UHGV virus genome: UHGV-2036287 | DNA length: 37,454 nt | Reading direction: 5' to 3' (one strand) | Source of the DNA: a virus | Part shown: piece after piece, positions 8,528 through 37,454 of the stretch | Numbering within the stretch: position 1 is the first letter of the stretch | How the letters are laid out: each line of letters begins with the position of its first letter | Notes under the pieces: model-generated | Told to the model about the DNA's origin: nothing | Seen by the model: the letters and a program-made list of their open reading frames with translations, nothing else | The model's database searches: none | Program-made: the position numbers and the translations under genes

Positions 8528-8537
8528 TGATTACTCC

Positions 8538-11009: not shown

Positions 11010-11037
11010 ATGCAAGACTACTTACCTCCTTCTGAGC

Positions 11038-11949: not shown

Positions 11950-11995
11950 ATGATGCGGCAGGGATGGCGGGATTTCTGTTAATGTGGTTTAGGGA

Positions 11996-13308: not shown

Positions 13309-13438
13309 ATCGTATTCTCCTCTGTGAATAATTCATCGTTTATCCTGCACATCCCGTATCCCCGGCTCTCTTAACGCGCTTTAAAATCCTTTGCGCCCTG
13401 TATTTGTGATGCTGTCTCCACCAAACGAGGAGACACAC

Positions 13439-13789: not shown

Positions 13790-13791
13790 TC

Positions 13792-15800: not shown

Positions 15801-16345
15801 TGGCCAGACGCAGCACAATAGAAAAGCTGCCGGAAGACGTGCGCCGCTGGCTTGAACGGGCGCTGACTGAATCCGGCTTCAGCGGGTATAACGAGCTGGA
15901 GTCCCTGCTGCGTGAGCGGGGGTACGTCATCAGCAAATCCGCTATCCATCGCTATGGACAGAAGATTGAGCGCCGCTATGGTGCTATCCGTGCGGCAACA
16001 GAAGCGGCCCGCATGCTGACCGAAGGCGCAGCAGACGATCAGGATGCGCGTTCGGAGGCTGTGATAGCCCTTATTCAGACCGAGCTGTTCGAGAGTATTG
16101 TCCAGTTGCAGGAGGCGGAAGAAGGCGAAGTCGATCCTAAAGAACGCGTGGCCCTGCTGTCGAAGGTGGCGAAGAATGTGGCTACGCTGTCCCGCGCGTC
16201 CGTCAACCTCAAAAAGTTCCAGTCTGAAGTACGGGCCAGAGCGCAGCAGGCAGCCAGCAACGCCGAGAAAATTGCCCGTAAGGGGGGACTGTCAAGCGAC
16301 GCAGTACAGGCGCTTCGTCGCGAGATTCTGGGGATTGCCACATGA
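15800..16345 (+). CDS. Mu gp27-like protein (DUF3486; putative terminase small subunit)
   Basis: 181 aa with N-terminal HTH-like region; ATGA-coupled to the large terminase gene. Confidence 0.55.
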   Translation: MARRSTIEKLPEDVRRWLERALTESGFSGYNELESLLRERGYVISKSAIHRYGQKIERRYGAIRAATEAARMLTEGAADDQDARSEAVIALIQTELFESIVQLQEAEEGEVDPKERVALLSKVAKNVATLSRASVNLKKFQSEVRARAQQAASNAEKIARKGGLSSDAVQALRREILGIAT

Positions 16346-20235: not shown

Positions 20236-20237
20236 CA

Positions 20238-20696
20238 ATGGCTTCCGATAACCTGGTCAGTATCACCATTAACGATAAATCCCTGCGCCGGAGCCTCCGT
20301 GCGCTGGATCTTGCTGCCACAGACCTGGAGCCCGCGATGCGCAAAATCGCCGGAACCCTGCTGGCGGAAACACAGTTTAACTTTCTTGATGAGGGGCGTC
20401 CGGGGTGGATGCCCTCGCTGGCAGCGGAAGAACGTGACGGGCAGACACTGCAGGATACCGGGCGTCTGATGGGGTCAGTATCAACCGACCATGACGACTG
20501 GCAGGCTGTTGTGGGGACCAACGTTGTTTACGGTGCCATTCACCAGTTCGGGGGTAAAACGGGGCGTAATGAGTCTGTTGAACTTCCGGCCCGCCCGTTC
20601 CTGCCGGTGACGGGGGATGGAGAACTACAGCCTGAAGTGGTAATCCCCATCCTTGATACCATTGTCCGCCATCTTGAATCAGCGGCCCGTCGCTGA
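20238..20696 (+). CDS. Virion morphogenesis protein, Mu G-like
   Basis: 152 aa; GAIHQFGG motif and position after the F-like gene. Confidence 0.6.
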   Translation: MASDNLVSITINDKSLRRSLRALDLAATDLEPAMRKIAGTLLAETQFNFLDEGRPGWMPSLAAEERDGQTLQDTGRLMGSVSTDHDDWQAVVGTNVVYGAIHQFGGKTGRNESVELPARPFLPVTGDGELQPEVVIPILDTIVRHLESAARR

Positions 20697-20910
20697 GTTT
20701 TCTCTCTTCAGGCGGGTGATTTATCATTGCCAGCGAATGAGGGGCTGTATTACCTTTATAAAGGCTTTACAGCCTCTGTTTTATAACCGCTTCCGGTTCA
20801 CCGCATTGCTTTCCCTGTCCTTCTCCCCTGATGTTTTCTAAAGCAGATTAAAATCACCGGGCCTGCATTTCTCACAAACTGTCTCCGACAACATAACGCG
20901 GGACAGCAAA

Positions 20911-22026
20911 ATGTCAGCCATTCACATTTTTAAAGCCGGTACTCATACCGATATGCACGGCAAAAAACTGCCGTTCACGCCAGACGATCTTGCCGCCTGC
21001 GTGAAAGCCTATGACCCGTCCGTCCATGAAGCACCACTCGTGATTGGTCATCCCAGAACGGAAGACCCGGCGTGGGGCTGGGTGAAAGCCCTGTCGCTCA
21101 GCGGCGTCGATCTGATGGCAGAGCCTGCCCAGCTGGACCCGCAGTTTGCTGAGATGGTCACCGACGGACGATTCAAAAAAGTGTCCGCCTCTTTCTACCT
21201 CCCGGATTCACCGTCCAATCCGAAGCCCGGCGTGCTCTACCTGCGCCATGTGGGCTTTCTCGGGGCACAGCCACCTTCCGTCAAGGGGCTGAAACAGGTG
21301 TCCTTCAGTGAGCAGGAAGAAGGTGTGGTGGAGTTCGCCGACTGGCAGGCCATCACGAATGCCTCCCTGTGGGGAAAGCTGCGCGATTTTCTGATCGCCC
21401 GCTTCAGTCTGGACGAAGCAGAAAAAGTCCTGCCGGAATGGCAGCTCAACAATCTGCGCGAAGAGGCGTACCGCGACACACCGTCGCAGGATGCAGCAGG
21501 TGCGCAATTCAGTGAGACAGGCCAGGTGCCGTCTTCCGCAAGTAACGAGGAATCATCGATGACAAAAGAAGAGATTGAAGCCCTTCAGGAGGAGAACCGC
21601 CGCCTGAAGCAGCAGGCTGCTGATCGCGATGCGCGTGATGCACAGGTCAGACAGGAGCAACTGCATAAGGACAATGTGGCCTTTGCAGAAAAACTGGTCG
21701 CAGAGGGCCGTCTGGCTCCCCGCGCCTCCTCCGTGGTGGTTGCCCTGCTGGATGCCGTCGCCGGTGGCGACAAGCCGGTGGAGTTTGCTGAGGGGGAAAG
21801 CCGCACACCGCTGGCCACCGCCTTTCGTTCATTGCTCTCCGACGGGGAGCCGGTGATGAATTTCGCCGAACAGGCCACAAAAGAGCGTGTCGGCGACACG
21901 GTGAAGGTGGATGTGGCAGAGTTTGCGGAAGCCGATCCTGAGCGTCTGGCCCTGCATCAGAAAGCAGTGGCCCTGTCCAAAAAAGAAGGCATCAGCTATG
22001 AGGCTGCTGTCGCACGCTGCCTGTAA
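20911..22026 (+). CDS. Head protease/scaffold protein, Mu I-like
   Basis: 371 aa; N-terminal protease-like domain then Glu/Ala-rich coiled-coil scaffold region; directly upstream of the major head gene. Confidence 0.65.
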   Translation: MSAIHIFKAGTHTDMHGKKLPFTPDDLAACVKAYDPSVHEAPLVIGHPRTEDPAWGWVKALSLSGVDLMAEPAQLDPQFAEMVTDGRFKKVSASFYLPDSPSNPKPGVLYLRHVGFLGAQPPSVKGLKQVSFSEQEEGVVEFADWQAITNASLWGKLRDFLIARFSLDEAEKVLPEWQLNNLREEAYRDTPSQDAAGAQFSETGQVPSSASNEESSMTKEEIEALQEENRRLKQQAADRDARDAQVRQEQLHKDNVAFAEKLVAEGRLAPRASSVVVALLDAVAGGDKPVEFAEGESRTPLATAFRSLLSDGEPVMNFAEQATKERVGDTVKVDVAEFAEADPERLALHQKAVALSKKEGISYEAAVARCL

Positions 22027-22040
22027 TTTAAGGAGAGAGC

Positions 22041-22994
22041 ATGTCTGATTACTTAAAAGGTAAACGTGTCGTTGATCCGGTACTGACCAGTATCGCCCGT
22101 GGCTATAAAAATGCCGCATTCATCGGCGAACGTATTTTCCCCGTCGTGCTGACGGACAAGGAAGGCGTGCGTGTACCGACCTTCGGGAAAACCGCCTTTG
22201 TGGAATATGACACCGAGCGTGCCGTCGGGGCGGACAGCAATGTTCTGGTCCGTGAAAAAACAGGCACGCTGGACCTGGTGCTGGGTGAACACGATCTGGC
22301 TGCGCCGGTGGACTATCGCGAGCAGGCGGAGTCCATGTTTAACGAAGAGAGCAAGGCCATCCGTCGCGCCACGAATGGCGTGAACCTGCGCCGTGAACTT
22401 ATCGCTGCCCGTCTGGCTCAGGATGAAAAGGTCTACCGTACCGGGCACGTCAAAAAACTGACAGCCAGTGATCGCTGGGCCGGTGGTAAGGGGGACCCCA
22501 TCGGGGTGATTGAAGCCGGTATGGAAGCGGTCCGTACGGCCACGGGGCTGCGTCCTAACCTGATGACCATGGGGGCCGGCGTGATGGCGCTGCTGAAGTT
22601 CCACCCGGCGATTCAGGCCGCCATCGGAGCCAACGAACGCAAGCGCATCACCACAGAAATCCTGCAGGACCTCTTTCAGATCGAAGAGATCGTCATCGGT
22701 GCCCCAGTCTCCCTGCCGTCCATGAAAGCGGCAATGGATAAGAACAGCGTGCCGGCGGATATCTGGGGAGACAATCTGATGCTGCACTATGTCGGCAAAC
22801 CGCAGCCGGGGGCGGACAGCGCGGACGAGAACGAGCCGTCCTTCGGCTACACCCTGCGTCGTAAGGGGATGCCTGTTGCCGACAAATACGACGGAGCCGG
22901 TGGCAAGGTGAAGTACTGCCGTTATACCGATATCTACAAAGTCGCCGTGGTTGGTGGCGATGCCGGGTATCTCATTACCGGTATCAGTAAATAA
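22041..22994 (+). CDS. Major head (capsid) protein, Mu T-like
   Basis: 317 aa; strong RBS (AAGGAGAGAG); follows the protease/scaffold gene. Confidence 0.7.
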   Translation: MSDYLKGKRVVDPVLTSIARGYKNAAFIGERIFPVVLTDKEGVRVPTFGKTAFVEYDTERAVGADSNVLVREKTGTLDLVLGEHDLAAPVDYREQAESMFNEESKAIRRATNGVNLRRELIAARLAQDEKVYRTGHVKKLTASDRWAGGKGDPIGVIEAGMEAVRTATGLRPNLMTMGAGVMALLKFHPAIQAAIGANERKRITTEILQDLFQIEEIVIGAPVSLPSMKAAMDKNSVPADIWGDNLMLHYVGKPQPGADSADENEPSFGYTLRRKGMPVADKYDGAGGKVKYCRYTDIYKVAVVGGDAGYLITGISK

Positions 22995-23003
22995 GGAGGC
23001 GTT

Positions 23004-23342
23004 ATGGGAACCACTCAGCAGGTCATTCTGATCACAACCGTAACGGCAGGGGCAGCACTGGCACAGCAGCGTTTTGTCGGGGCAGATAATACCCCCTGTA
23101 AAGCCGGTGCCGCAGCGCTCGGGGTTGCCGAAGTGGATGCTGTTACCGGCGACAGCACGCCGGTGAGCGTTCTGGGCATTATTGCTGTCGAGGCCGGGGC
23201 CGCTGTCAGCCGTGGTGTGGCTGTTCAGTCAGATGCTCAGGCCAGAGCCGTGCCGCAGTCCGGCGACGGTAAATCCTGTGGTATTGCACTTGATGAAGCC
23301 GGGGGTGAAGGCGACGTCATTCGTATCCTGCGCGGGGTGTGA
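23004..23342 (+). CDS. Hypothetical head-associated protein (Ala/Gly/Val-rich)
   Basis: 112-aa ORF with RBS AGGAGG immediately after the capsid gene. Confidence 0.4.
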   Translation: MGTTQQVILITTVTAGAALAQQRFVGADNTPCKAGAAALGVAEVDAVTGDSTPVSVLGIIAVEAGAAVSRGVAVQSDAQARAVPQSGDGKSCGIALDEAGGEGDVIRILRGV

Positions 23343-23343
23343 C

Positions 23344-23790
23344 ATGTACTGCACCCTGGAGGATTTGCTTGCGCAGGTGCCGGAGCGGACGCTTATCGAG
23401 CTCACCAGTGAAGAGATGGACTTCGACTCGCCTGCAACAGTGAATACCCGTGTGGTGGACAGCTGTATCCGCTATGCCGACGAGCTGATTGATGCCCATC
23501 TGCGCGGACGCTATATCCTGCCACTGGCAGAGATACCGACTGTTCTGCGGGACATTGCCATCACGCTGGTCCGTTACCGGCTCTACGCCCGCCGCCCGGA
23601 AGGTGACCTCCCGGATACGGTGAAGGATGACCACAAAGAAGCGCTGCGGCAACTCAGGGAGTTACGTGATAACAGGCTCACGCTGGGGCTGCCGTCCACT
23701 CAGAAAGATGTGCCTGAGCCTGGCGAGTTTCGTGTACGCAGTCGCCCGGCCACTTTCGGCGGTCGTGACGGTTTACTGGAGAAATACTGA
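23344..23790 (+). CDS. Mu gp36-like protein (DUF1320; head completion/connector candidate)
   Basis: Starts at ATG 23344, 2 nt after the upstream stop; 148 aa. Confidence 0.45.
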   Translation: MYCTLEDLLAQVPERTLIELTSEEMDFDSPATVNTRVVDSCIRYADELIDAHLRGRYILPLAEIPTVLRDIAITLVRYRLYARRPEGDLPDTVKDDHKEALRQLRELRDNRLTLGLPSTQKDVPEPGEFRVRSRPATFGGRDGLLEKY

Positions 23791-24254
23791 TGAACGTTCT
23801 GCCCGTCCTTGATGCGGTACTGGCCCGGTTACGCGAGAAGCTGCCGCAACTGCAGGTGGAGTACTTCCCGGAGAAACCGGCTGAATATCGCCTGAACCAT
23901 CCGGTTGGCGCGTTGCTGCTGAGCTATGCCGGTTCGCGCTTTGACAGGCCGGATGATACCGGTGCGGTGATCCAGTCTCAGACTATCCAGCTCTGCGTCA
24001 CGGTGGTCTTCCGCCAGCTCAACGGTAAAAAAGGGGCGATTAATGTCCTGGATGCTGTCCGCCGCATTCTCGGTGGCCACACCCCGCCCGGCTGCCGCCG
24101 CCGTATCTGGCTGACCCGCGAGGTGTTTATCGGTGAAGTCAGGGGGCTGTGGCAATACGCCCTCGACTTCGCGACTGAAAGCATCTTTATCGAAGACAGC
24201 GATTTACCGTCCGGCCCGCTGTTAACCGAAGTGAACTATGAGGAAAGCGAGTGA
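23790..24254 (+). CDS. Mu gp37-like protein (DUF1834; head-tail joining candidate)
   Basis: 154-aa ORF, ATGA-coupled to the upstream gene. Confidence 0.45.
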   Translation: MNVLPVLDAVLARLREKLPQLQVEYFPEKPAEYRLNHPVGALLLSYAGSRFDRPDDTGAVIQSQTIQLCVTVVFRQLNGKKGAINVLDAVRRILGGHTPPGCRRRIWLTREVFIGEVRGLWQYALDFATESIFIEDSDLPSGPLLTEVNYEESE

Positions 24255-24505
24255 TGAAAGCATACCGCTATTCCGGCCCGGCCAGCGGCGTCACGCTGTC
24301 GGACGGAACCGAAATCCTGCTCTGGCCGGGGAAGGCGGTTTCCCTGCCGGAGGAGCATGACTACGTGAAGGTACTGGTGGCGCTGAAGCATCTGACGCCG
24401 GTACCAGAAGATACTAAACCCGCCGTCACACCGGCTGTGCAGTCACCAAAGCGCAGAAGCAGCAGTGACAGCGAAGTGAAAACGGAGGACGCCCATGGCA
24501 GCTAA
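24251..24505 (+). CDS. Hypothetical protein
   Basis: 84-aa ORF coupled at both ends within the head-tail block. Confidence 0.35.
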   Translation: MMKAYRYSGPASGVTLSDGTEILLWPGKAVSLPEEHDYVKVLVALKHLTPVPEDTKPAVTPAVQSPKRRSSSDSEVKTEDAHGS

Positions 24506-25922
24506 CTATCTGCATGGTCCCGAAACCATTGAGGTGGAAAACGGAGCCCGCCCGGTTAAAACGGTGAAATCTGCCGTTATTGGCCTGATTGGTACCGCCC
24601 CGATGGGGGATGTCAATACGCTGGTACAGTGCCTGTCTGAGAAAGACGCAGCGGCATTTGGCAGCCAGTTCACCGGCTTTACCATTCCGCAGGCGCTGGA
24701 TGCGATTTATGACCATGGTGCAGGCACCGTTCTGGTCATTAACGTCCTCGACCCGGCGAAACATAAAACGGCGATCGAGGATGAGGTGGTTACCTTTGAC
24801 AAATCGACAGGGCAGGCCAGACTGGCGCATCCGGTTGTCGCTAATGTGGTGGTGAAAAACAGTGAAGGCAGCACCACCCACACGGCGAACACGGACTACC
24901 GTGTTGATGCGCAGGCGGGTGTGCTCACGAACCTGGGCAAGGCTATTGAGGCCGGTGGCAGCGTGAAGGTGAGCTATGAGTACGCGGACCCGTCGAAGGT
25001 GACTGCGGCGGACATCATCGGCGGGGTGAACAGCGCCGGAAACCGAACCGGCATGAAGCTGCTTAACGACAGCTTCAACCTGTACGGCTATTTCGCCAAA
25101 ATTCTGATTGCGCCGGTGTTCTGCACCCAGAAGAGTGTCGCAGTTGAGCTTATCGCCATGGCAGAGAAGCTGGGCGCGGTAACCTACATTGATGCGCCTG
25201 TCGGTACCACCTTTGCACAGGCTCTGGCAGGTCGTGGCCCGGAAGGCACCATCAACTTCAATACCAGCTCCGACCGCGTCCGTCTGTGCTATCCGCATGT
25301 GAAGGTATATGACCCGGTGACAAACACAGAGCGTCTGGAGCCGCTCAGCCAGCGTGCAGCAGGTCTGCGTGCCAGAGTCGATCTGGACAAGGGCTACTGG
25401 TGGTCATCCTCCAATCAGGAGATTCTGGGGATCACCGGCGTGGAGCGCCAGCTGTCCGCGATGATTGATGACCCGCAGAGTGAGGTAAACCTGCTTAACG
25501 AACAGGGGATCACCACGGTATTCAGCAGTTACGGCAGCGGCCTTCGTCTGTGGGGTAACCGGACGGCAGCATGGCCAACGGTCACCCATATGCGTAACTT
25601 TGAGAACGTTCGCCGCACCGGTGATGTGATCAACGAGTCCATTCGTTATTTCAGCCAGCAGTACATCGACATGCCGATTACTCAGGCGCTGATTGATGCA
25701 CTGACGGAGTCGGTCAACGCCTACGGTCGCAAAATGACTGGTGATGGTGCGGTACTGGGCTTCCGTTGCTGGTTTGATCCGGCCCGCAATCCGGAGACGG
25801 AGCTGGCCGCCGGGCACCTGTTGCTGAGCTACAAATATACGCCACCACCGCCGCTGGAGCGACTGACGTTTGAGACTGAGATCACCTCGGAATACCTGTT
25901 AACCCTGAAAGGGGGCAACTGA
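24495..25922 (+). CDS. Contractile tail sheath protein (P2 FI / Mu L family)
   Basis: 475 aa; size, position before the tube gene, conserved C-terminal sheath region. Confidence 0.75.
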   Translation: MAANYLHGPETIEVENGARPVKTVKSAVIGLIGTAPMGDVNTLVQCLSEKDAAAFGSQFTGFTIPQALDAIYDHGAGTVLVINVLDPAKHKTAIEDEVVTFDKSTGQARLAHPVVANVVVKNSEGSTTHTANTDYRVDAQAGVLTNLGKAIEAGGSVKVSYEYADPSKVTAADIIGGVNSAGNRTGMKLLNDSFNLYGYFAKILIAPVFCTQKSVAVELIAMAEKLGAVTYIDAPVGTTFAQALAGRGPEGTINFNTSSDRVRLCYPHVKVYDPVTNTERLEPLSQRAAGLRARVDLDKGYWWSSSNQEILGITGVERQLSAMIDDPQSEVNLLNEQGITTVFSSYGSGLRLWGNRTAAWPTVTHMRNFENVRRTGDVINESIRYFSQQYIDMPITQALIDALTESVNAYGRKMTGDGAVLGFRCWFDPARNPETELAAGHLLLSYKYTPPPPLERLTFETEITSEYLLTLKGGN

Positions 25923-26443
25923 TGTCAAAGATTGAGATAAACCGCATCACGAATGCCAACATCTATCTGGATGGTACTAACCTGCTGGGACGGGCTGAGG
26001 AAGTTAAACTCCCCGATGTCTCCATGATTATGCAGGAACACAAGGCGCTGGGGATGGTGGGTAAGGTGGAACTCCCGGCTGGTTTTGACAAACTGGAAGG
26101 CGAAATCAAATGGAACAGCTTTTACCGCGATGCGATGCTGTCTGCCGCGAACCCGTACAGGTCGCTGGCACTGCAGTGTCGTTCCAGCGTCCAGCGCTAC
26201 AGCTCGCAGGGGCTGATTGACGAAATCCCGCTGGTCACCTTCCTGACGATTATGTTCAAGAAGAACCCGCTGGGGACGTTCAAACAGCACGAGAACGCCG
26301 AGTTCTCCAGTAGCTTCACCTGCACGTATATCAGACAGGTACTGGATGGTGAAGAGCTGCTGCAACTGGACTATCTGGCCAACATCTTCCGGGTCGGCGG
26401 TGTTGATCAACTGACTGACTACCGTATCAATATCGGGGGCTGA
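25922..26443 (+). CDS. Tail tube protein (P2 FII / Mu M family)
   Basis: 173 aa; start overlaps the sheath stop (TGATG). Confidence 0.7.
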   Translation: MSKIEINRITNANIYLDGTNLLGRAEEVKLPDVSMIMQEHKALGMVGKVELPAGFDKLEGEIKWNSFYRDAMLSAANPYRSLALQCRSSVQRYSSQGLIDEIPLVTFLTIMFKKNPLGTFKQHENAEFSSSFTCTYIRQVLDGEELLQLDYLANIFRVGGVDQLTDYRINIGG

Positions 26444-26445
26444 CG

Positions 26446-26727
26446 ATGAGTGTTGAACTGACGGATAAAGGAAGACGATGTGCGGCACTGGGCATGTCAA
26501 ATGGTACGTGGTTTACCCTCCTTGATATTCCGGGGGTGGAAACCCTTTTTAATACCCGTAAAACCAATGACCCGATTGACTGCACACGTTCAAAGGCCCG
26601 CAAACTGGCGGATTTGATTGAAGCATGGGAGCCTCCCGACCACTGGTTCTCCGGCACCGGCAAATCTGAGGGAAAGACGCTTCTCATCGCTTTCCTGCGT
26701 AACTGCAAGGGGTTTCGCACTTGCTGA
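26446..26727 (+). CDS. Hypothetical small protein (moron-like insert between tube and chaperone genes)
   Basis: 93-aa ORF followed by a clean terminator hairpin; no motif recognised. Confidence 0.4.
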   Translation: MSVELTDKGRRCAALGMSNGTWFTLLDIPGVETLFNTRKTNDPIDCTRSKARKLADLIEAWEPPDHWFSGTGKSEGKTLLIAFLRNCKGFRTC

Positions 26728-26733
26728 CATCAC

Positions 26734-26760
26734 AGGGGCTCCGGCCCCTTCTTCTTAATC
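26734..26760 (+). terminator. Rho-independent terminator
   Basis: AGGGGC-TCCG-GCCCCT stem-loop followed by TCTTCTTAATCTCC. Confidence 0.5.
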
Positions 26761-26824
26761 TCCTTTAATATCCGTCACGCGCTTCTCCCGACATACTGCC
26801 CTGAACTTACACAGGAGCACAATC

Positions 26825-27160
26825 ATGTCACAGACCCCATCCGATACTTTTAAATTGTCTTATCCCTTCACCACTGCTGCAGGCACCAGAATTGAGCAGG
26901 TTGAACTGAAACGCCTGACGGTAAAAGACCTGAAGCAGGTGCGCAAAATCAGCAAAAACCCGGCAGACTGGGACGAACCGCTGATTGCCCGCAGTACTGG
27001 TCTTCTCCCGGAAGATCTCGACAATATGGATCTGGCTGATTACCTGCAGTTACAGAAACGATTTCAGCTCATCACGGGGATGGGTGAGAGCAACCAGGGC
27101 GCTGACGCAGGCGCAGGGGCTGCTGGCGAGATGGTTCCGGTTTCAGCCGGGGGAGATTGA
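26825..27160 (+). CDS. Tail assembly chaperone (P2 gpE-like), upstream frame
   Basis: 111 aa, acidic, directly upstream of the tape measure gene; RBS AGGAG. Confidence 0.6.
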   Translation: MSQTPSDTFKLSYPFTTAAGTRIEQVELKRLTVKDLKQVRKISKNPADWDEPLIARSTGLLPEDLDNMDLADYLQLQKRFQLITGMGESNQGADAGAGAAGEMVPVSAGGD

Positions 27161-27242
27161 TGCCCTCGATACTGACGATCTGGAGATGTGGCTGGAGCAG
27201 GCTGAAGAGCAAATAAAAAGCGAGTACGGCGACAAATCATAG
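26825..27242 (+). CDS. Putative frameshift-extended tail assembly chaperone (E+E'-like fusion)
   Basis: A second ORF in another frame (open 26985-27242) overlaps the 3' half of the chaperone ORF and extends to within 75 bp of the tape measure start, the classic position for a programmed frameshift; by my frame arithmetic the shift is +1, which is unusual. Confidence 0.4.
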
Positions 27243-27317
27243 TACAGACAGCCGCCAGTAGCGGCTGTTCTGCGTTATCCCCTCACGTCTTTTCACCTTC
27301 CCCGGAGGTTAACCACT

Positions 27318-30269
27318 ATGTCGGGACAGTTTTCAGTCGGCGTTGTTATCGGCGGGATGATTGGCAGCACATTCCGTTCTGCAATGAGCGGTACCCGCCG
27401 TGCGCTTGATTCCCTGAGCGATACCTCACGCCGCCTGCAGGAACGTCAGAACGCTTTAACCCGTGCAACAGAACGTTATGGTCAACTGGGTTCTTCCCGG
27501 ATGCAGCATCTCAACAGCGAGCTGCTGCGGGTAAGCCGCACCATGGAGCAAATTGAGCGCCAGCAGCGCCGTCTGTCAGCGGCATCCGCTACCAGTGATG
27601 CGCTGAAAGCTAACCGCATGGCGCTGTATGGTCAGGGGATTGAAGCGTATGGCATGGCACAGACTGTTTATCATACGGTTTCCCCTGCCGTTCAGCAGTC
27701 CATGTCTTTTCAGGACAAAATGATTGATATGTCGATCACCGCAAAATATGACAATAAAACGCGGGATGCACTTGCCGGACAGATAAAAGGCTGGGCGCTT
27801 AAATACAATCAGTATCAGGATGAGCTGCAGGAGGCGGTGGGTTCACTCATCAGCGACAATATTGATAATGTGTCAGATATCGGTTTTCTGATGCCGGATA
27901 TTGCCCGCGCGGCAACGGCAACACGCACGTCTGCTCAGGACTGGGCAAAAGTGGCCGCAGTCTGGCAAAACTCCCTGAAAGGTGCGGCCAGAGATTTTGG
28001 TGCCGTTCAGAATATTATGGCTTATGCCGGTGACCAGGGGTCATTTGAAATCCCGGATCAGGTCAAGTGGATGCAGTCCCTGGCCCCAATGATGGCGGGT
28101 ATTGCCAGTGGAAAAGAAGCTGTTGCTGAAATCGGGGCCAGTCTCCAGATAGCAAAAATCGGTGCAGGTTCCACCGACGAAGCAGCCAATAATTTTAAAA
28201 ACTTTCTTACCAAAATTTTTGCCCGCGATACTCAGAAACAGTTTGCTGATCTGGGTATTGATTTGCAGGGATCTATTGCGAGTTATAAAGCTGCGGGGAT
28301 CTCTCCGATTGAAGGGATGTTGAGTGTTATAGAACGTTACCTCAATGCCAAAAGCCCCGAAGCGCTGGCCGGCTTCAAATCAGCCATGAAAATAAAGAAT
28401 GATACGGCAAGAGATGAGGCACTTCAGGCTCTGGCGAAAAACTTTGGTCTGGGCGATATGTTCGCGGATATGCAGGTCATGGCATTTATCCGCCCGATGC
28501 TGGCCAACATGGACAGATATCGAGAGATCCGTGCCGGTGCTCTCAGGGCTGCGGATAACGATTTGCTTGCCAGTGCTTATGATCAGCGGCTGAAATCTCC
28601 CCTTGAAGCCACTAAAACACTTATGGTCAGCAGTCGCGATCTGGCAATTACGCTGGGCGATCAATTAGCTCCATCTTTTATTTCTTTGACTCAGGAACTG
28701 CTTCCACTCATTCAGGGGGCAAAACACTGGGTAGCGACTCACCCGCAATTTGTCAGTGGGGCTTTTAAGCTCATCAGTGCGCTCCTTGCGATTAAGATAG
28801 CGACTGTTGGTCTCAAACTGGGGCTGAATCTCCTTATTTCCCCCTTTGTAAGTGTCTGGAAAAATGCTGTTTTACTTCGGGGCAACTGGCTTCGTCTGTC
28901 GCTCGCACTGGGGCAAGGCGGTAAGCTCCGCTGGCTGGTGACCGGATTTAGCGCCGTCGCCAGAGGAGCCAGAACACTGAGTGGCGTGCTCTCCGGGGGG
29001 CTGGTTCGCGGAATTATGCTCGCCGGACGTGCTGTTCTCTGGATTGGACGTGCGCTGATGATGAATCCCATCGGTCTCGTTATCACCGCTGTCGCGGCAG
29101 CAGCTTACCTTATCTACCGCAACTGGGGGGCAGTCAGTGGCTGGTTTAAACAGCGCTGGGCAGACATTCAGGAAGCCTTTAACGGCGGCATTGTGGGAAT
29201 TGGTAAGTTGCTGATTAACTGGTCGCCGGCAGGCCTGCTCTATAAAGCCTTTGCGGCTGCGCTGAAATATTTCGGCGTTGCTCTGCCGGCAAAGTTCACC
29301 GACTTCGGTGGCCATCTTATCGACGGTCTGATTAACGGTATCAAAAACAAATGGGGGTCGCTCAAATCCAGTGTAACCGGAATGGGTGACAGCATCAGTA
29401 GCTGGTTTAAACAGTGCTGGGCTGACATTCAGGAAGCCTTTAACGGCGGTATCGCGGGAACTGGTAAGCTGCTGATTAACTGGTCGCCGGCAGGTCTGCT
29501 CTATAAAGCCTTTGCAGCTGCGCTGAAATATCTTGGTGTTGATCTGCCGGCAAAGTTTACCGACTTCGGTGGCCATCTTGTCGATGGTCTGATTAACGGT
29601 ATCAAAAACAAATGGGAGTCGCTCAAATCCAGTGTAACCGGAATGGGTGACAGCATCAGTGGCTGGTTCAGCGAAAAGCTGGGCATTCATTCGCCGAGCC
29701 GCGTGTTTATGGGCTTTGGTGACAATATCGCGCAGGGGGCCGCCATTGGCCTGCAGCGGACCACTCCGCTTGCAGCTCTGGCCGGGCAGCGAATGGCCAG
29801 TGAACTGCTCCCCAAAATGCCCGTGAGCATTCAGGGGCCAGAAATACGGGATAACACTTCAGGTGTTCGCTTCAGTATGCCGTTGCCCGATATCAATGGG
29901 TTTATGTCGTCTGCTAAAAATGCGATCGGAGCCGTAATCAATAGTTTGTCTTCCATGCCCGCTATTCCGCTCTCCACCCGGGCATCGATTTTACCAGGGC
30001 AACGTCTGGCAAATGAGATGACACCGGATGTTCCCCGTATCCCCTCGCCTGAAATCCTGGCTGCCGGATATTCAGGCCGTGGTGCAACTGCAACCGGCGG
30101 TGGAACGTCTGGTGGTATCCAGGTCAGCTTTAATCCTCAGTTTTTCCTCAATGGCAGGGAAACCACAGCGCCTGCAGGACTGACTGGTGCCCTGAATATG
30201 AGTCTGCATGAGCTGGAAAAAATGCTGGAGCGTCTGCTGGCTCAGAAACAACGTAAGGAGTACCGCTGA
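27318..30269 (+). CDS. Tail tape measure protein
   Basis: 983 aa; N-terminal coiled coil, hydrophobic central segments, internal 87-aa tandem duplication; position between chaperone and baseplate genes. Confidence 0.8.
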   Translation: MSGQFSVGVVIGGMIGSTFRSAMSGTRRALDSLSDTSRRLQERQNALTRATERYGQLGSSRMQHLNSELLRVSRTMEQIERQQRRLSAASATSDALKANRMALYGQGIEAYGMAQTVYHTVSPAVQQSMSFQDKMIDMSITAKYDNKTRDALAGQIKGWALKYNQYQDELQEAVGSLISDNIDNVSDIGFLMPDIARAATATRTSAQDWAKVAAVWQNSLKGAARDFGAVQNIMAYAGDQGSFEIPDQVKWMQSLAPMMAGIASGKEAVAEIGASLQIAKIGAGSTDEAANNFKNFLTKIFARDTQKQFADLGIDLQGSIASYKAAGISPIEGMLSVIERYLNAKSPEALAGFKSAMKIKNDTARDEALQALAKNFGLGDMFADMQVMAFIRPMLANMDRYREIRAGALRAADNDLLASAYDQRLKSPLEATKTLMVSSRDLAITLGDQLAPSFISLTQELLPLIQGAKHWVATHPQFVSGAFKLISALLAIKIATVGLKLGLNLLISPFVSVWKNAVLLRGNWLRLSLALGQGGKLRWLVTGFSAVARGARTLSGVLSGGLVRGIMLAGRAVLWIGRALMMNPIGLVITAVAAAAYLIYRNWGAVSGWFKQRWADIQEAFNGGIVGIGKLLINWSPAGLLYKAFAAALKYFGVALPAKFTDFGGHLIDGLINGIKNKWGSLKSSVTGMGDSISSWFKQCWADIQEAFNGGIAGTGKLLINWSPAGLLYKAFAAALKYLGVDLPAKFTDFGGHLVDGLINGIKNKWESLKSSVTGMGDSISGWFSEKLGIHSPSRVFMGFGDNIAQGAAIGLQRTTPLAALAGQRMASELLPKMPVSIQGPEIRDNTSGVRFSMPLPDINGFMSSAKNAIGAVINSLSSMPAIPLSTRASILPGQRLANEMTPDVPRIPSPEILAAGYSGRGATATGGGTSGGIQVSFNPQFFLNGRETTAPAGLTGALNMSLHELEKMLERLLAQKQRKEYR
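29142..29663 (+). repeat. Tandem direct duplication, 2 x 261 bp, inside the tape measure gene
   Basis: Units starting at 29142 and 29403 are about 90% identical and in frame, encoding WFKQ(R/C)WADIQEAFNGGI...GMGDSIS(S/G) twice. Confidence 0.9.
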
Positions 30270-31153
30270 TGTTTGCCGTACTGGGTGATATTGAGTTTGA
30301 GCTGATTACCTACTGGGACGGCTTCGAGGCCACGTTCGGCGTCGATTATGCGGAGCATGCCCGCATCGGGGGTAAGCCTGGCCTGCAGTTCGTCGGCGAC
30401 AGGCTGGACGAAATCCAGATAAGTCTGGTCTTCCATCAGCATTATTGTGTACCCGATGTGGAGCTGGCGAGACTGCGAACAGCCATGAAAGCCCATCAGG
30501 CACTGGCGCTGGTCTTCGGCAACGGTGACTATCGTGGCTGGTTCGTGATTACCGATGTGACCGCAACCAGCGAGCAGACAGACAGCACCGGTAACGTGCT
30601 GGCTGTCAGTGCCACCGTGTCTCTCCGGGAATACACCGGTGATCCGAAAAATCCTCTGCAACCACCGGCAATACGCACGAAGCTCCCGGGTGTCGGGGCG
30701 GTCTCCGGTGCCATTCCTTCACCTTCAGGGGTGGCGCAGTTCATCCGCAACGGCGTCAACTATGCGAAACAGGCGCAGTCTGTACTCCAGACCACTATCA
30801 GCGCCGTTCGGGTGACACAGAAAATGAAGGATAACCCCGTTGTCGCACTGACCCGTGTGCCGGGGCTGATGAGCGGACTGGGTAATATCTCCGGGGCTCT
30901 GGGGAAAAGTGTTCCGGCGTTTAACGCACTCTCTGAATCCATGCCCGATGCCATCAGTCTGGCCAGAACAGCCAGCGAAGCAGCCACGTATGTACAGCAG
31001 GCACAGTCTGCGCTGAGTGGTGTGGACAAAAGAAATATTGCAGGTGCTCTGGATACCGTTTCCGGGCAGCTTAACGCCGCCGGCACAGCATTCAACCGCA
31101 TGTCTCCGGGATTAAGTGCAATGGCCGCCAGAATACTGACGAGGAGTGTGTGA
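30269..31153 (+). CDS. Tail protein, P2 gpU / Mu N N-terminal domain-like
   Basis: N-terminus MFAVLGDIEFEL...GKPGLQFVG resembles the gpU / DNA-circularisation N-terminal domain family; start overlaps the tape measure stop. Confidence 0.5.
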   Translation: MFAVLGDIEFELITYWDGFEATFGVDYAEHARIGGKPGLQFVGDRLDEIQISLVFHQHYCVPDVELARLRTAMKAHQALALVFGNGDYRGWFVITDVTATSEQTDSTGNVLAVSATVSLREYTGDPKNPLQPPAIRTKLPGVGAVSGAIPSPSGVAQFIRNGVNYAKQAQSVLQTTISAVRVTQKMKDNPVVALTRVPGLMSGLGNISGALGKSVPAFNALSESMPDAISLARTASEAATYVQQAQSALSGVDKRNIAGALDTVSGQLNAAGTAFNRMSPGLSAMAARILTRSV

Positions 31154-31365
31154 TGTTTCTTGAACATGTTACCCGTGACGGAGAGCGCTGGGATTCGCTG
31201 GCATGGCAGTACTACGGTGACCCGCTGGGCTATCCCCGGATTATTGCCGCCAATCCGCACGTGGCCATCACGCCGGTGCTGCCCTCCGGGCTGTTGTTAC
31301 TGATCCCGGTGATTGAGGCTGAAGAAGCCCGTACAGAAGAGGATATTGCCCCATGGCTGAGATAA
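31150..31365 (+). CDS. Tail protein X (P2 gpX-like)
   Basis: 71 aa with the ERWDSLAWQYYGDP motif typical of gpX. Confidence 0.6.
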   Translation: MMFLEHVTRDGERWDSLAWQYYGDPLGYPRIIAANPHVAITPVLPSGLLLLIPVIEAEEARTEEDIAPWLR

Positions 31366-32494
31366 ACAGCACTGCGCAAGTCACATCAGCGTTAACCGGC
31401 GTCAGCGATGTGCTGACACCGGTGTTCACTCTGTGGTATCTGCAGAAAAACATCACCTCTGATATCGCGCCTTATGTCACCCGTGTGACCTGGAGCGATA
31501 GTCCGATACCATTGAGGTGGAGCTGGACGACACCGATGGCCGCTGGCTGGATAAGTGGTATCCGGGCAAGGGTGACACGCTGACGCTGAAAATGGGCTAT
31601 CAGGGCGAGAAGCTGCTGTCCTGCGGTACGTTCTCTATAGACGAGATCGAAGTGAGTTCGCCCGCTTCCGTTGTTTCTATCCGTGGGGTGGCCACCTCGG
31701 TTAACAGTGCCCTGCGGACTAAAACCAGTCGTGGTTTTGAGAACACCACGCTGGCAGCTGTTGCGGGGCGGATTGCCAGAAAGCACCGACTGAAACTGGT
31801 GGGCAGCATTGAGTCCATCAGAATCGACCGGGTGACCCAGTATGCTGAAACCGACGTGGGTTTTCTGCGCCGGCTGGCCAGCGAGTATGGTTATGCAGTG
31901 AAAGTGGTCAGTGACCAGCTGATTTTTTCTCATCTGGCCACACTGCGCAGTCAGGAGCCGGTCAGGCAGTTAAAACCGCAGGATGTGGCCCGCTTTTCCC
32001 TGCGTGACACCATCAACCGGGTCTATAAATCTGCAAAGGTAAAACACCAGAAAAGCAGCAGTAAAAAACTGATCGTCTACGAAGCTGATGGTGGTACCCG
32101 TGAAAGCGACAAAAAGCTCAAAGGTGGTAAGGTTACCAGCGCTGACTCACTTAAAGTTAACAGCCGCGTCAGCGACCCGGACAGTGCCCGGATTAAAGCG
32201 GATTCAGCACTGGCCAGACATAACGAATACCAGCAGAACGGCTCCCTGACGCTGACGGGAACACCTCAACTGACAGCAGGCAACAAAATTGAACTGGTGG
32301 GTTTTGGGCAGTTATCCGGGCCATGGCTCATAACCACTGCCCGCCATGCGTTTGACCGTAACAGCGGCTACACCACAGAGCTGGAAGTGGCACGGGGGCC
32401 AGTCACAAGAGGGAAAAAACAAAAAACTCAGAAACTCACGGTTTATCACCCGGATGGCAGTACATCGACGGTGATTAAGGAGAAGAAAAAATGA
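31353..32494 (+). CDS. Tail/baseplate hub protein, P2 gpD / Mu P family, interrupted by a frameshift near 31500 (possible pseudogene or sequencing error)
   Basis: N-terminal 50 codons are in one frame (stop at 31581-31583); the rest, including the conserved EVELDDTDGRW segment, is in the -1 frame opening at 31502; combined length about 380 aa matches gpD. Confidence 0.6.
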
Positions 32495-33087
32495 CTGGTG
32501 TCACTCGTCAGGTCGGTACGGTCAGTGCCGTTGATGCCGACAGGGTTCAGGCCCGCGTTCGTCTGCCTGAATGCGATAACCTGCGCACAAACTGGCTTAA
32601 CGTGCTGCAGCGCAATACCCAGGATAACAAAGATTACTGGCTCCCTGACGTGGGGGAGCAGGTTGAGGTGCTGCTCGATGCCAACGGCGAGGATGGTGTT
32701 ATTCTGGGCGCGGTGTATTCAGACGTCGATAAACCACCGTTCAGTGACAAAAATATCCGGGGAACCCGGTTTGCTGATGGTGCAGAGTACAGCTACAACC
32801 GGAAGACGCACACTCTGATCATCCGGGGCGGCATTGAGCATATTGTCATTGAGTGTGGTGCTGATGTGGTATTGAAAACACAGAAAGCCACGATTGACGC
32901 ACCGGAAACCGAACTTACCGGAGATCTGCGTGTCAGGGGTAAGCTGATTTACGAAGGAGGCATGGCGGGTTCTGGTGGTGAAGGTGTTACCGCGACCATC
33001 CATGGCAATATCGAGATTAAAGGGAATGCCCATGCCACGGGCAGTATGTTGTCTGATGGCGAAAACTCCAGCCACCACTCCCACTGA
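32491..33087 (+). CDS. Baseplate spike / assembly protein V (P2 gpV-like)
   Basis: 198 aa; OB-fold N-terminus and Gly-rich C-terminal region; gene order D-V-W-J-I. Confidence 0.7.
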   Translation: MTGVTRQVGTVSAVDADRVQARVRLPECDNLRTNWLNVLQRNTQDNKDYWLPDVGEQVEVLLDANGEDGVILGAVYSDVDKPPFSDKNIRGTRFADGAEYSYNRKTHTLIIRGGIEHIVIECGADVVLKTQKATIDAPETELTGDLRVRGKLIYEGGMAGSGGEGVTATIHGNIEIKGNAHATGSMLSDGENSSHHSH

Positions 33088-33141
33088 GCTTTTTAAACGC
33101 CTTTAATATCAGCGTTCCCGCACGGGGGCAATACTGCCCCC

Positions 33142-33489
33142 ATGAAAACAACCTCAGTATTCTGGCAACCAGCCCTGCAGGCTCCCGGCGAAATTGTCCG
33201 GGGGCTGGATGATATCCGGCAGGCGATTCAAATTATCCTGCGGACTCCCCGCGGCAGCGACCCGCATCGCCCGGAGTTCGGCAGCAATCTGCATCTTTAT
33301 ATCGACTGGCCTGTAGACCGGGCCATTCCGCATGTGGTGCGCGAATCCGTCGATGCCATCCGGCGCTGGGAGCCCCGCTGCCAGCTTATGTCAGTTAAAC
33401 CCGCCGTCGACGGCGAACATCTTACGCTCCGGGTGAGCTGGAAAGGCTCAGACGGACAGACCCGGACTCAGGAGCTGCTATGGCGCTGA
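33142..33489 (+). CDS. Baseplate protein W (P2 gpW / T4 gp25-like)
   Basis: 115 aa; position and size. Confidence 0.7.
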   Translation: MKTTSVFWQPALQAPGEIVRGLDDIRQAIQIILRTPRGSDPHRPEFGSNLHLYIDWPVDRAIPHVVRESVDAIRRWEPRCQLMSVKPAVDGEHLTLRVSWKGSDGQTRTQELLWR

Positions 33490-34583
33490 CAGAACCCGAT
33501 TTTATTGAACGCGATGCCGACAAAATCACGGCAGAAATGATTGCGAAGTATGAAGCGGATACCGGCAAAACGCTGTACCCGGCACAGGCAGAACGTCTGC
33601 TGATTGATCTGTGGGCCTATCGCGAAATGCTGGTCAGGGTTGCGGTACAGGAGGCAGCAAAGCAGAATCTGGTCGCCTTTGCCCGTGAGCCGATGATTGA
33701 TTACCTCGGTGAACTGGTTGGTGTATACCGTCTTGCCGCGCAGCCTGCCACCACCACGCTCCAGTTCTCCGTAGATGAGGCACTGGCCATTGATGTGCTG
33801 ATCCCGGCAGGCACCCGCGTCAGCGCTTCCGACAGCGTTATTTTTGCCACCGATACAGATGTGGTACTGAAGGCCGGATTGCTGCTGGTCAATGTCACGT
33901 CCACCTGTACCGAACCCGGTACCGCTGGTAACGGCTGGCAACCTGCGCAGGTCAGTCAGTTACTCGATGAGATTGATAACGTCGACATGCTGGTGAGCAA
34001 TCTGACGGTCAGTTCCGGCGGTTCAGAACAGGAAGACGATGACAGGCTCCGGGAGCGTATCAGGCTGGCCCCGGAGTCATTCACCAATGCCGGAAGCCGT
34101 GGCGCATACCGCTTTCATGCCATGCAGGCCCATCCCAACATTGTCGATGTTGCTGTGCTTTCCCCGGTTCCCGGGACCGTAGATCTGTATCCGCTGCTCA
34201 GTACCGGTCTGCCGGACGGCGGTGTTCTCACGCTGGTAGAGAGTTTCTGCTCTGATGAGAAAGTCAGGCCACTCACTGATACAGTGCGGGCTAAAACACC
34301 AGTGAAGGTGGATTACACCATTGAAGCCAGGATTACGATCTATCGTGATCAGGATGCCAGGTCTGTAAAAGATGCCGCTAACAGCGCCATACAGAACTGG
34401 GTGGCATCACGTGCCGCCACGCTGGGGCGTGATATTGTCCCCAGCCAGATTATCAGTGCATTGTCCGTTTCCGGGGTGTACCAGGTTGAACTGGTGAAAC
34501 CGGCACTGAGGGTGGTGGCAGAAAACGAATGGGCAAACTGTACGGCGATCACACTTAACATGAGTGGAGTGTCTGATGACTGA
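33480..34583 (+). CDS. Baseplate protein J (P2 gpJ-like)
   Basis: 367 aa; overlaps W and I genes as in P2-type baseplate operons. Confidence 0.7.
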   Translation: MALTEPDFIERDADKITAEMIAKYEADTGKTLYPAQAERLLIDLWAYREMLVRVAVQEAAKQNLVAFAREPMIDYLGELVGVYRLAAQPATTTLQFSVDEALAIDVLIPAGTRVSASDSVIFATDTDVVLKAGLLLVNVTSTCTEPGTAGNGWQPAQVSQLLDEIDNVDMLVSNLTVSSGGSEQEDDDRLRERIRLAPESFTNAGSRGAYRFHAMQAHPNIVDVAVLSPVPGTVDLYPLLSTGLPDGGVLTLVESFCSDEKVRPLTDTVRAKTPVKVDYTIEARITIYRDQDARSVKDAANSAIQNWVASRAATLGRDIVPSQIISALSVSGVYQVELVKPALRVVAENEWANCTAITLNMSGVSDD

Positions 34584-35154
34584 GCCATTACAACTCCCGC
34601 CACCGCTTGAGGGTGATATCAGTCTCAGGACGCTGGGAAGACTGGCAGGGCGGCTGGATAACATCGACCTGAGCGTACTGATGGTCTTTCTCGTCGATAT
34701 CGTCGACAGTTCTGCGCTGCCATGGCTGGGCGAGCAGTTCTCACTGTCTGGCGATGGCTGGGAGCTGGCGGAATCGGACGATGTTCGCCGCATGCTTATA
34801 AAAGCAGCCATCGAACTACACCGGTATAAAGGGACGCCGTGGTCAATCCGGGAAGTTATCCGCCGTTTTGGCTTTGGTGAAGTGGATCTGATTGAAGGCA
34901 CAGGTCGTCTCAGTTACGACGGCAATCGCAGCTATAACGGACTGTTTGTTCATGGAGATACAGCCGCCTGGGCGGTTTATCGCGTTATTCTGAAACAGCC
35001 CATTACTAACGATCAGGCCGCGATGCTGCGTCAGACGCTCGCTGCATTTGCACCGGCCCGCTGCCATCTGGCCAGCCTGGAGTATCAGTCTGTGGCCATT
35101 CGCTATAACAATACCGCCATCCATGATGGCAGTTATAACCACGGGAGCAGTTGA
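34576..35154 (+). CDS. Tail protein I (P2 gpI-like)
   Basis: About 192 aa from ATG 34576 (the ORF also has a GTG at 34564); upstream of the tail fibre gene. Confidence 0.6.
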   Translation: MTEPLQLPPPLEGDISLRTLGRLAGRLDNIDLSVLMVFLVDIVDSSALPWLGEQFSLSGDGWELAESDDVRRMLIKAAIELHRYKGTPWSIREVIRRFGFGEVDLIEGTGRLSYDGNRSYNGLFVHGDTAAWAVYRVILKQPITNDQAAMLRQTLAAFAPARCHLASLEYQSVAIRYNNTAIHDGSYNHGSS

Positions 35155-35156
35155 TT

Positions 35157-36449
35157 ATGGGAAACCTGAATGAAACAGAAAAGTGGGAAGAAAATATCTA
35201 TCAACTGGAGACATCAGATCCGGTTCTGGGTGGTGCTGACGGGATATCAAATCGAGCCCCCCGGCAACTGGCAAACAGGACGAAATGGCTGAAGAAAAAA
35301 ACGGAGGAAGCCGCACAGTCACTGGCTGAACACGTACGTTCCCGTAACCACCCGGACGCGACACTGACAGCTAAGGGGTTCACCCAACTGAGCAGTGCCA
35401 CCAACAGCACCTCTGAAACGCTGGCCGCCACACCAAAAGCCGTCAAGGCTGCATACGACCTTGCAGCCGGCAAGGCGCCCGTCAGCCACACTCACCCGTG
35501 GAGTCAGATAACGGGAGTGCCTGCTGCCTCGCTGACGGCAAAAGGCACCGTACAACTGAGCAGTGCCACCAACAGCACCTCTGAAACGCTGGCCGCCACA
35601 CCAAAGGCCGTCAAGGCTGCATATGACCTGGCTGCCGGCAAGGCCCCCGTCAGCCACACTCACCCGTGGAGTCAGATAACGGGAGTGCCTGCTGCCTCGC
35701 TGACGGCAAAAGGCACCGTACAACTGAGCAGTGCCATCAACAGCACGTCTGAAATACTGGCCGCCACACCGAAAGCGGTCAAGGCTGCATACGATCTGGC
35801 AAACGGAAAACAACCGGCAGATGCCACGCTCACTGCTCTGGCAGGACTTGCCACTGCAGCAGATCGGTTGCCTTATTTTACCGGAGCAGACCGCGCAGCG
35901 CTGGCAACCCTTACAGCTATTGGTCGCGCTATTATCGCTAAGGGCAGTATAAAAGATGTCCTCAATTACCTTGGTTTGGGGGAAGGCTCTGCATTGCCTG
36001 TTGGTGTACCGGTTCCATGGCCCACCGCCACACCGCCAGCAGGCTGGTTACAGTGCAACGGAGCTACGTTCACCAAAGAACAATATCCTGTTCTGGCCAG
36101 AGTCTACCCGACCCTCCGTCTTCCCGATTTACGCGGTGAGTTTATCCGTGGATGGGACGACGGGCGCAAGATTGACGAGGGGCGTAAGTTGCTTTCATGG
36201 CAGAAAGGTACACTGGTCGGCGGTCATGACGATAACGATTCTTCGCTGGATATCTCGTACATGAGTAACGGAAATAATATTGACTATGGCGGCGATAAGG
36301 TGTTTGCGGGGAATTACCGTAGCGATTATTTGTGGTACGCAATTCTGGGTGGAACAAACAGTCGCGCAAAAGCCGAATTAAACGGAGCATTCTTTAACAT
36401 AACCCGCCCCCGCAATATCGCGTTTAACTATATCGTGAGGGCGGCGTGA
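35157..36449 (+). CDS. Tail fibre protein (P2 H / Mu S-like) with internal tandem repeats and variable C-terminal tip
   Basis: About 430 aa; three copies of a 56-aa unit (TAKG..QLSSATNSTSETLAATPKAVKAAYDLAAGK...); C-terminus ends RPRNIAFNYIVRAA; the ORF track begins at a TTG at 35151. Confidence 0.75.
   Translation: MGNLNETEKWEENIYQLETSDPVLGGADGISNRAPRQLANRTKWLKKKTEEAAQSLAEHVRSRNHPDATLTAKGFTQLSSATNSTSETLAATPKAVKAAYDLAAGKAPVSHTHPWSQITGVPAASLTAKGTVQLSSATNSTSETLAATPKAVKAAYDLAAGKAPVSHTHPWSQITGVPAASLTAKGTVQLSSAINSTSEILAATPKAVKAAYDLANGKQPADATLTALAGLATAADRLPYFTGADRAALATLTAIGRAIIAKGSIKDVLNYLGLGEGSALPVGVPVPWPTATPPAGWLQCNGATFTKEQYPVLARVYPTLRLPDLRGEFIRGWDDGRKIDEGRKLLSWQKGTLVGGHDDNDSSLDISYMSNGNNIDYGGDKVFAGNYRSDYLWYAILGGTNSRAKAELNGAFFNITRPRNIAFNYIVRAA
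35364..35830 (+). repeat. 168-bp tandem repeats (about 2.8 copies) within the tail fibre gene
   Basis: Units starting at 35364, 35532 and 35700 are near-identical at the nucleotide level. Confidence 0.85.
36104..36169. repeat. Left copy of an inverted repeat (at least 66 bp perfect) inside the tail fibre gene
   Basis: 36104-36169 is identical to the reverse complement of 37389-37454; similarity continues imperfectly for about 25 bp further inward. Confidence 0.8.
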
Positions 36450-36455
36450 TACCGT

Positions 36456-37070
36456 TCAGCTGGCAAGTGCCAGTGGCGCTTCCGGCCAGCTGATTTCAGG
36501 TGCCGTGCTGATATCCAGTGCGTTCAGCTCGTCGATATAATCCAGCACGGCGTTCAGTTTTGCCGTTTCTTCTGGTGTCAGACTGCGACCAGCACGCAGT
36601 TTGAGGTTGATAAGATCGACGGACGCCATCGCCTGTTTCACCCGTTGCTGGCGTTGCTGTCTGGCAACCTCCAGTTCTGCGGCTCGCTGCCGTTCAGTAT
36701 CGGTTACCCACGCCTCACCGTTCCAGGTATCCCATGGCGTGGCCGGCTGTTTTGTGGTGGTGTCCGCCGGGTAATCACCCGGTTGGGTAATCAGAACGGG
36801 GTTACCGTTCTCCGTGCTGTATACCGTCTCGCCGCGGTGATCAGGCACATGCTCCCACCCGTTCAGCGTGGCAGTCCGGCAAACCACGTAACCCGAAATT
36901 GCCTCCGGCGGTGCATCGGCGCACGAATGTGCCGGAGTACCCACCCCAAGGGCGAGATACTCCACAGAGGATGAGGTGTATTCCCGGGTTTCCTCGTCAT
37001 AGTGATATACAGTGATCTCGCCCGCTACAGTGGCGATACCGTTTTCATCCAGAACTGCAGTGTTACTCAT
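36456..37070 (-). CDS. Tail fibre assembly protein (Mu U / P2 G family), opposite strand
   Basis: 204 aa; conserved C-terminal region (LTPEETAKLNAVLDYIDELNALDIS); translationally coupled (TAATG) to the upstream minus-strand fibre-tip ORF. Confidence 0.7.
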   Translation of the reverse strand: MSNTAVLDENGIATVAGEITVYHYDEETREYTSSSVEYLALGVGTPAHSCADAPPEAISGYVVCRTATLNGWEHVPDHRGETVYSTENGNPVLITQPGDYPADTTTKQPATPWDTWNGEAWVTDTERQRAAELEVARQQRQQRVKQAMASVDLINLKLRAGRSLTPEETAKLNAVLDYIDELNALDISTAPEISWPEAPLALAS

Positions 37071-37454
37071 TAAACTGCCCTCACAATGTAATTAAGTGCA
37101 ATGCTACGGGGTCTGACAGTGATACCCTTCGCATACCCGCTTCTGATAGAGGTCAGAATAGTAGCCTGCATACCATTGTCTGACATTGCCACGACAGGAT
37201 CGCTGAATGTTGTCCCGTCCGGCATTTTAAAGCTGCCCTCACGAAGGTCTGTAATGGAATCTTCATTGTTGAATCCCATGCCGACTATCCCCGAGGTTCC
37301 CGTAGTGTCCTGGTTATAATAATCCAGCATTGCTGTTCTTAACAGCGTTGCCCCTTGTGCGGACAGCAACTTACGTCCTGTATCAACTTTGCGCCCGTCG
37401 TCCCATCCACGGATAAACTCACCGCGTAAATCGGGAAGACGGAGGGTCGGGTAG
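37070..37454 (-). CDS. Alternative tail-fibre C-terminal domain on the opposite strand (5' end beyond the window)
   Basis: Frame open to the window edge; N-terminal part in the window (YPTLRLPDLRGEFIRGWDDGRK...) is encoded by the inverted repeat and matches residues of the plus-strand fibre; C-terminus ends RPRSIALNYIVRAV, paralleling the plus-strand fibre C-terminus. Confidence 0.6.
   Translation of the reverse strand, partial: YPTLRLPDLRGEFIRGWDDGRKVDTGRKLLSAQGATLLRTAMLDYYNQDTTGTSGIVGMGFNNEDSITDLREGSFKMPDGTTFSDPVVAMSDNGMQATILTSIRSGYAKGITVRPRSIALNYIVRAV
37389..37454. repeat. Right copy of the inverted repeat (truncated by the window edge)
   Basis: Reverse complement is identical to 36104-36169. 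Confidence 0.8.

Follow-up and report, generated by a model that had tools for sequence, protein, structure and literature searches.

A private 13-bp deletion has probably inactivated the baseplate hub gene of an otherwise intact BcepMu-like prophage of Escherichia coli

The stretch of DNA analysed here, hereafter the window, comprises the 37,454 nucleotides of virus genome UHGV-2036287 and is a scaffold of an E. coli draft genome, in which a BcepMu-like prophage is inserted in the autotransporter gene yejO. Positions 1-61 are the end of an IS1 element, positions 62-882 are part of yejO, and the prophage end lies at about 883 (Table 1). This yejO::prophage junction was found in 0 of 5,426 complete E. 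coli genomes; the prophage end adjoins different host DNA in different genomes, and up to three copies of the related prophage region were seen per genome. The DNA of R4, which is 99.98% identical, is annotated as encoding an integrase-catalytic-domain protein (590 aa; a DDE-type transposase), an ExeA family (MuB-like) ATPase, Mor and Gam, and Escherichia phage PhiKM (PQ738613) is classified as Bcepmuvirus. Judged by its transposase, MuB-like ATPase, Mor, Gam and variable insertion sites, the element appears to be a Mu-like transposable prophage of the Bcepmuvirus kind. Since transposition, lysis, head and tail genes are all present, we are dealing with a whole Mu-like prophage and not with a tailocin, and the term "tailocin-incapable", used in an earlier sequence-only reading of this DNA, is inapplicable.

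Positions 35151-37454 form an invertible tail-fibre segment, with alternative fibre C-termini and fibre-assembly genes on opposite strands; positions 35971-36196 match, in inverted orientation, the far side of the segment in relatives. The window ends before the Gin-like recombinase found in AR_0013, and it is probably the invertible segment that caused the contig to break at this end.

By the Pfam matches of its neighbours, the gene under study holds the hub position of a contractile-tail baseplate cluster (U, X, hub, V, W/J/I). All other late genes that were compared with relatives are open over their full length. The ATG of the gpV-like spike gene overlaps the stop codon of the hub gene (ATGA), with AAGGAG 8 nt upstream; since the spike gene has this ribosome-binding site of its own, strong polarity is not expected. 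Within the tape-measure gene (27318-30269), a segment of about 260 bp (about 87 aa) is duplicated in tandem at 29116-29668, with about 91% identity. Elsewhere this gene is annotated as an incomplete pseudogene (SK1144), coincides with a sequencing gap (PhiKM) or is in large part absent (L013, GCA_013820845.1), and the tandem repeat may explain the defects in SK1144 and PhiKM. At 26825-27245, the gene for the tail assembly chaperone (111 aa, Phage_TAC_7) overlaps with a subsequent ORF that is read in a different frame (...FRFQPGEIDALDTDDLEMWLEQ...), an arrangement that looks like a candidate for the programmed frameshift of E/E' type commonly present upstream of the tape-measure gene.

Table 1. 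Features of the prophage and of its hub gene region in the window
Feature	Position	Strand	Evidence or remark
BcepMu-like (Bcepmuvirus) transposable prophage	883..37454		left end ~883; right end past the window, which stops within the invertible tail-fibre segment
GpU-like tube initiator, 294 aa, intact	30269..31153	+	PF06995, 133 bits; exact protein widespread in E. coli
Tail protein X (small hub-wedge protein), intact, overlaps start of hub gene	31150..31365	+	PF05489, 65 bits
Hub gene, retained 5' part, codons 1-49 (M1..D49)	31353..31499	+	identical to intact gene; alignment with SK1144 and PhiKM; PHROG 52 covers residues 1-50 only
Deletion junction, 13 nt (AACATCAAAAATG) absent; microhomology of 1 nt (A) only	31499..31500	+	alignments with relatives
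Out-of-frame tail of 76-aa ORF, 27 unrelated residues (SPIPLRW...RVTR), TGA at 31581-31583	31500..31583	+	no family match past residue 50
Hub gene, 3' part, -1 frame, codons S55..K384 and stop	31502..32494	+	PF05954 Phage_GPD; 325-aa fragment scores 42.3 bits
Baseplate spike, gpV-like, 198 aa, intact	32491..33087	+	PF04717
Wedge genes, full-length open: W/gp25-like (33142-33489), J-like (33480-34583), I-like (to 35154)	33142..35154	+	ORF list; Pfam of corresponding genes in related loci; R4 and AR_0013 annotation

In place of a single uninterrupted frame, the hub gene of the window is in two pieces in the ORF list, a 76-aa ORF at 31353..31583 (frame 0) and a 325-aa ORF at 31517..32494 (frame 2), both homologous to a single 384-aa "phage late control D family protein". 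In the three-frame translation, frame 2 is open from 31502, directly after a TAG at 31499-31501, so that the two reading frames share 82 nt (31502-31583). The shift is -1, and it occurs at 31499/31500. The sequence-only reading had already placed the 5' codons and the rest of the gene in different frames, on which ORF list and three-frame translation agree, and its switch near 31500-31505 is borne out by the position found here. It had assumed, however, a single missing nucleotide, and here the comparison with relatives gave a different answer. In a three-way alignment, 13 nt (AACATCAAAAATG) present in both SK1144 and PhiKM are missing between 31499 and 31500 of the window, and apart from this block the three sequences differ only by one substitution in PhiKM. 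The same 13-nt gap was found against every relative compared. The missing bases are codons N50-I-K-N and the first base of E54; the intact gene, which we take as ancestral, has 1155 nt and encodes 384 aa, reading ...VTWSD-NIKNE-SDTIEVELDD... around this point. Inserting one base would indeed give a 380-aa frame, as had been calculated, but this is not the ancestral protein.

We found neither a homopolymer nor a flanking repeat at the junction, the nearest A5 run being at 31446. Given a gap of 13 nt and not of one, a simple base-calling or homopolymer error is unlikely, and we rejected a single-base error as the cause. A deletion between direct repeats was rejected as well, since the nearby CGATA...CGATA pair would give an in-frame loss of 21 bp and not the observed junction. 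An antisense ORF (31472..31933, 153 aa) has no PHROG family match and was treated as spurious.

The assignment of the gene as gpD-like, proposed earlier from the sequence alone, withstood the searches made here and agrees with the gene order U-X-D-V-W-J-I-H. The Pfam family Phage_GPD (PF05954; cutoff 30.1 bits) matches the intact relative with 41.7 bits and scores above the cutoff on the window's 325-aa fragment too. The closest solved structure is the hub of the R2 pyocin (PDB 6u5h_C, E 2.6e-18), with residues 33-352 of the query aligned to residues 13-323 of the chain, an alignment that spans the deleted segment as well as its flanking residues. On the intact protein the match to PHROG 52, "tail protein", extends over residues 1-376, whereas on the 76-aa ORF it stops at residue 50, which indicates that residues 51-76 of this ORF are out-of-frame read-through. 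Taken on its sequence, the window copy thus reads as a pseudogene of the Phage_GPD family rather than as a functional member. Four further PHROGs of "unknown function" (4456, 20686, 33062 and 24348; 50-135 positions) match only sub-segments of the hub protein and were apparently assembled as families from pieces of D genes that are split or truncated in phage records.

Mutants in gene D of P2 and in gene P of Mu are known to make no tails. In Mu, gp44 is the trimeric hub, whose tube-like domains form a pseudo-sixfold ring, and it attaches to both the spike and the tape-measure protein's C-terminus at the centre of the baseplate (PMC11915804).

Is the deletion shared by relatives? A megablast search with positions 31150-32500 gave matches in 634 complete E. 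coli genomes as well as in PhiKM, and among the matches listed every top match spans 1364 bases against 1351 in the query. Both SK1144 and PhiKM carry one CDS of 1155 nt, annotated as "phage late control D family protein" and "tail formation protein GpD", respectively. With a shorter query of 71 bases across the junction, 628 complete genomes were matched; the best 15 rows all span 84 bases (71+13), and no ungapped full-length match ranked above them among the complete E. coli genomes. Among the matches listed, therefore, the deletion was not found in any of the approximately 630 complete E. coli genomes that carry the gene. A 40-mer across the junction gave 0 exact matches in collections of genomes, viruses and metagenome contigs, and the 76-aa product is absent among approximately 15 billion proteins. 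Based on these findings, we rejected the idea of a pseudogene shared by a whole lineage. Moreover, the 384-aa hub gene is intact in 10/10 loci that encode exactly the GpU-like neighbour of the window.

Exact copies of the 325-aa and 300-aa C-terminal products occur in other records, from other causes, and none of the loci examined as possible carriers of the deletion proved to be one. The noisy long-read assembly of L003 contains homopolymer insertions, in L004 the cause is a separate nonsense mutation (TGG to TAG, codon 47), L005 and L006 are the ends of contigs that continue into adapter sequence, and the contigs of L007-L009, which encode the 300-aa product, end short of the junction region.

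L004 (positions 1767-1907; Logan SRR32318925) comes from another E. coli isolate and represents an independent inactivation of the hub gene, a few codons away from the deletion in the window. In the complete genome of AR_0013 (L010), the genes for DUF3486, a small hypothetical protein and GPW/gp25 are annotated with an "internal stop", and the tail fibre gene is in pieces; unlike in this copy, all four genes are intact in the window. The hub nonsense mutation of L004 and the pseudogenes of AR_0013 suggest that decay is common in this prophage family.

The reading we prefer, with a probability of about 0.7, is that the window carries a private and recent inactivating 13-bp deletion in the hub gene of an otherwise intact Mu-like prophage. 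The loss of 13 bp at 31499/31500 would have removed codons 50-53 and shifted the frame by -1. Translation from the native start would then yield 49 correct residues followed by 27 unrelated ones before the stop at 31583, and the remaining 330 codons would be left in another frame without a good independent start. The hub trimer is expected to be the centre on which the spike, the C-terminus of the tape-measure protein, the tube initiator and the wedges assemble, and if it is absent, tails and infectious particles should not form. In this respect the earlier argument, from the loss of a functional hub to the loss of tails, seems to us sound as far as the sequence goes. As up to three copies of the prophage region occur per genome, another related prophage of the strain could, however, provide the hub protein in trans. 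The prophage would be tail-defective while its other genes look intact, a state that would fit recent, strain-private prophage decay. This reading supposes that the deletion is present in the DNA of the cell, as we infer.

The most serious alternative, though in our view a less likely one, is an assembly artefact, in which the strain has the 13 bases and an intact hub gene, and the bases were dropped during contig joining or gap closing of a scaffolded short-read draft. The finding of a 13-bp deletion in place of the assumed single base shifts the odds between sequencing error and real mutation. The sequence-only reading had considered that a sequencing error would fit the draft status of the DNA. 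The draft status itself holds, since the run of N is a genuine gap of the scaffold; a simple base-calling or homopolymer error is unlikely, as both size and context of the lesion speak against it. The 31-N run at 12875-12905 stands for 41 real bases in R4, and must therefore be a scaffold gap of estimated size and not a length-preserving mask. It points to imperfect coverage and to the probable use of a scaffolding or gap-closing step, and such steps can create small local deletions. The run lies inside a gene that encodes a 243-aa hypothetical protein in R4. Furthermore, both ends of the window break in repeats, the left one in IS1 and the right one in the invertible fibre segment, a pattern typical for short-read drafts, and the lesion is a singleton from one assembly, which is how either a recent mutation or an artefact would be expected to look.

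Against this stands how clean the neighbouring sequence is. In comparisons with AR_0013 over 24.5 kb and with R4 over approximately 36 kb, every indel except the 13-nt gap is offset by another within a few bases; these others are paired 1-nt gaps in the divergent fibre region (AR_0013 and R4) and in the tape-measure repeat (R4 only). Positions 883-12874 differ from R4 by 2 mismatches in 11,992 positions, and, leaving the 13 nt aside, positions 26269-35153 match L014 (GCA_964052335.1) with 0 mismatches over 8,872 b. With so few mismatches to L014 and R4, the local error rate must be very low. The match to L014 includes the 260-bp tandem repeat of the tape-measure gene, which is difficult to assemble and was assembled identically. 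Moreover, no repeat of k-mer length flanks the junction, so that a graph collapse is not expected, and 13 bases are atypical of a base-calling or homopolymer error. The clean surroundings and the lack of a repeat or homopolymer at the junction thus argue against both base-calling error and repeat collapse.

Returning to a genuine deletion, it could also have been fixed through a benefit to the host, by disarming a freshly acquired transposable prophage that keeps its immunity, transposition and lysis genes, or the hub-less element could spread by intracellular transposition or with the hub of a sibling prophage. We consider such scenarios very improbable.

Finally, we give hardly any credence to the proposal that programmed -1 frameshifting joins the two ORFs, or that a reinitiated C-terminal fragment of 300-325 aa still works as a hub: the -1 direction and the 82-nt overlap would suit the former, but there is no slippery heptamer of the type X XXY YYZ in 31353-31583 and the split is absent from the relatives examined, each of which has a single 384-aa frame. 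A programmed frameshift is thereby rejected as far as sequence tells, lacking both slippery site and conservation. As to reinitiation, the earliest possible restart codons in the 3' frame are GTG 31517 (325 aa) and ATG 31592 (300 aa); the latter sits 9 nt past the stop of the 76-aa ORF, so that some reinitiation is conceivable, but the GTG has no Shine-Dalgarno sequence at a useful distance upstream. A fragment restarted at either codon would lack the first 59-84 residues, and since conserved residues of the R2 pyocin hub and of PHROG 52 align to the N-terminal segment that is missing or garbled here, function of such a fragment as a hub is unlikely.

If the deletion is real, as in the reading we prefer, the prophage should be regarded as tail-defective, and neither plaques, nor transduction, nor use as an inducible phage should be expected of it, although prophage-finding tools would still see a complete element. 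An artefact would point to a local error of the draft. In both cases the significance beyond annotation is small.

The closest counterparts of the window are PhiKM and the widespread BcepMu-like prophages of E. coli (SK1144, R4, AR_0013), which have the same gene order and 98.8-99% nucleotide identity in the X-D-V region. In R4 and other prophages of complete genomes, the 12-kb early region is 99.98-100% identical to that of the window. What sets PhiKM, SK1144, R4 and AR_0013 apart is that their 384-aa hub gene is intact and includes the 13 bases. By Pfam and structure match, the reconstructed 384-aa protein resembles the members of the Phage_GPD family (P2 gpD, Mu gp44, the R2 pyocin hub 6U5H chain C and the N-terminal part of T6SS VgrG), and its neighbours are those expected for this family (a U-like initiator, X, the V spike, W, J, I and fibre genes). 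The window gene differs from the family in being broken, with no intact product readable from the native start. Its two ORFs, which overlap in the 0 and -1 frames and lie in a cluster of tail genes, also recall the chaperone frameshifts of P2 (E/E') and lambda (G/GT); in the window, however, the split is in the wrong gene, lacks a slippery site and is not conserved in relatives. A further parallel is offered by cryptic and defective prophages, which decay by small inactivating mutations. The window resembles them in that a single private deletion shifts the frame of an essential structural gene while the prophage is otherwise intact, and nothing in it is distinctive in comparison with such decay. 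Under either reading, deletion or artefact, the event is an ordinary one, of a kind already well understood.
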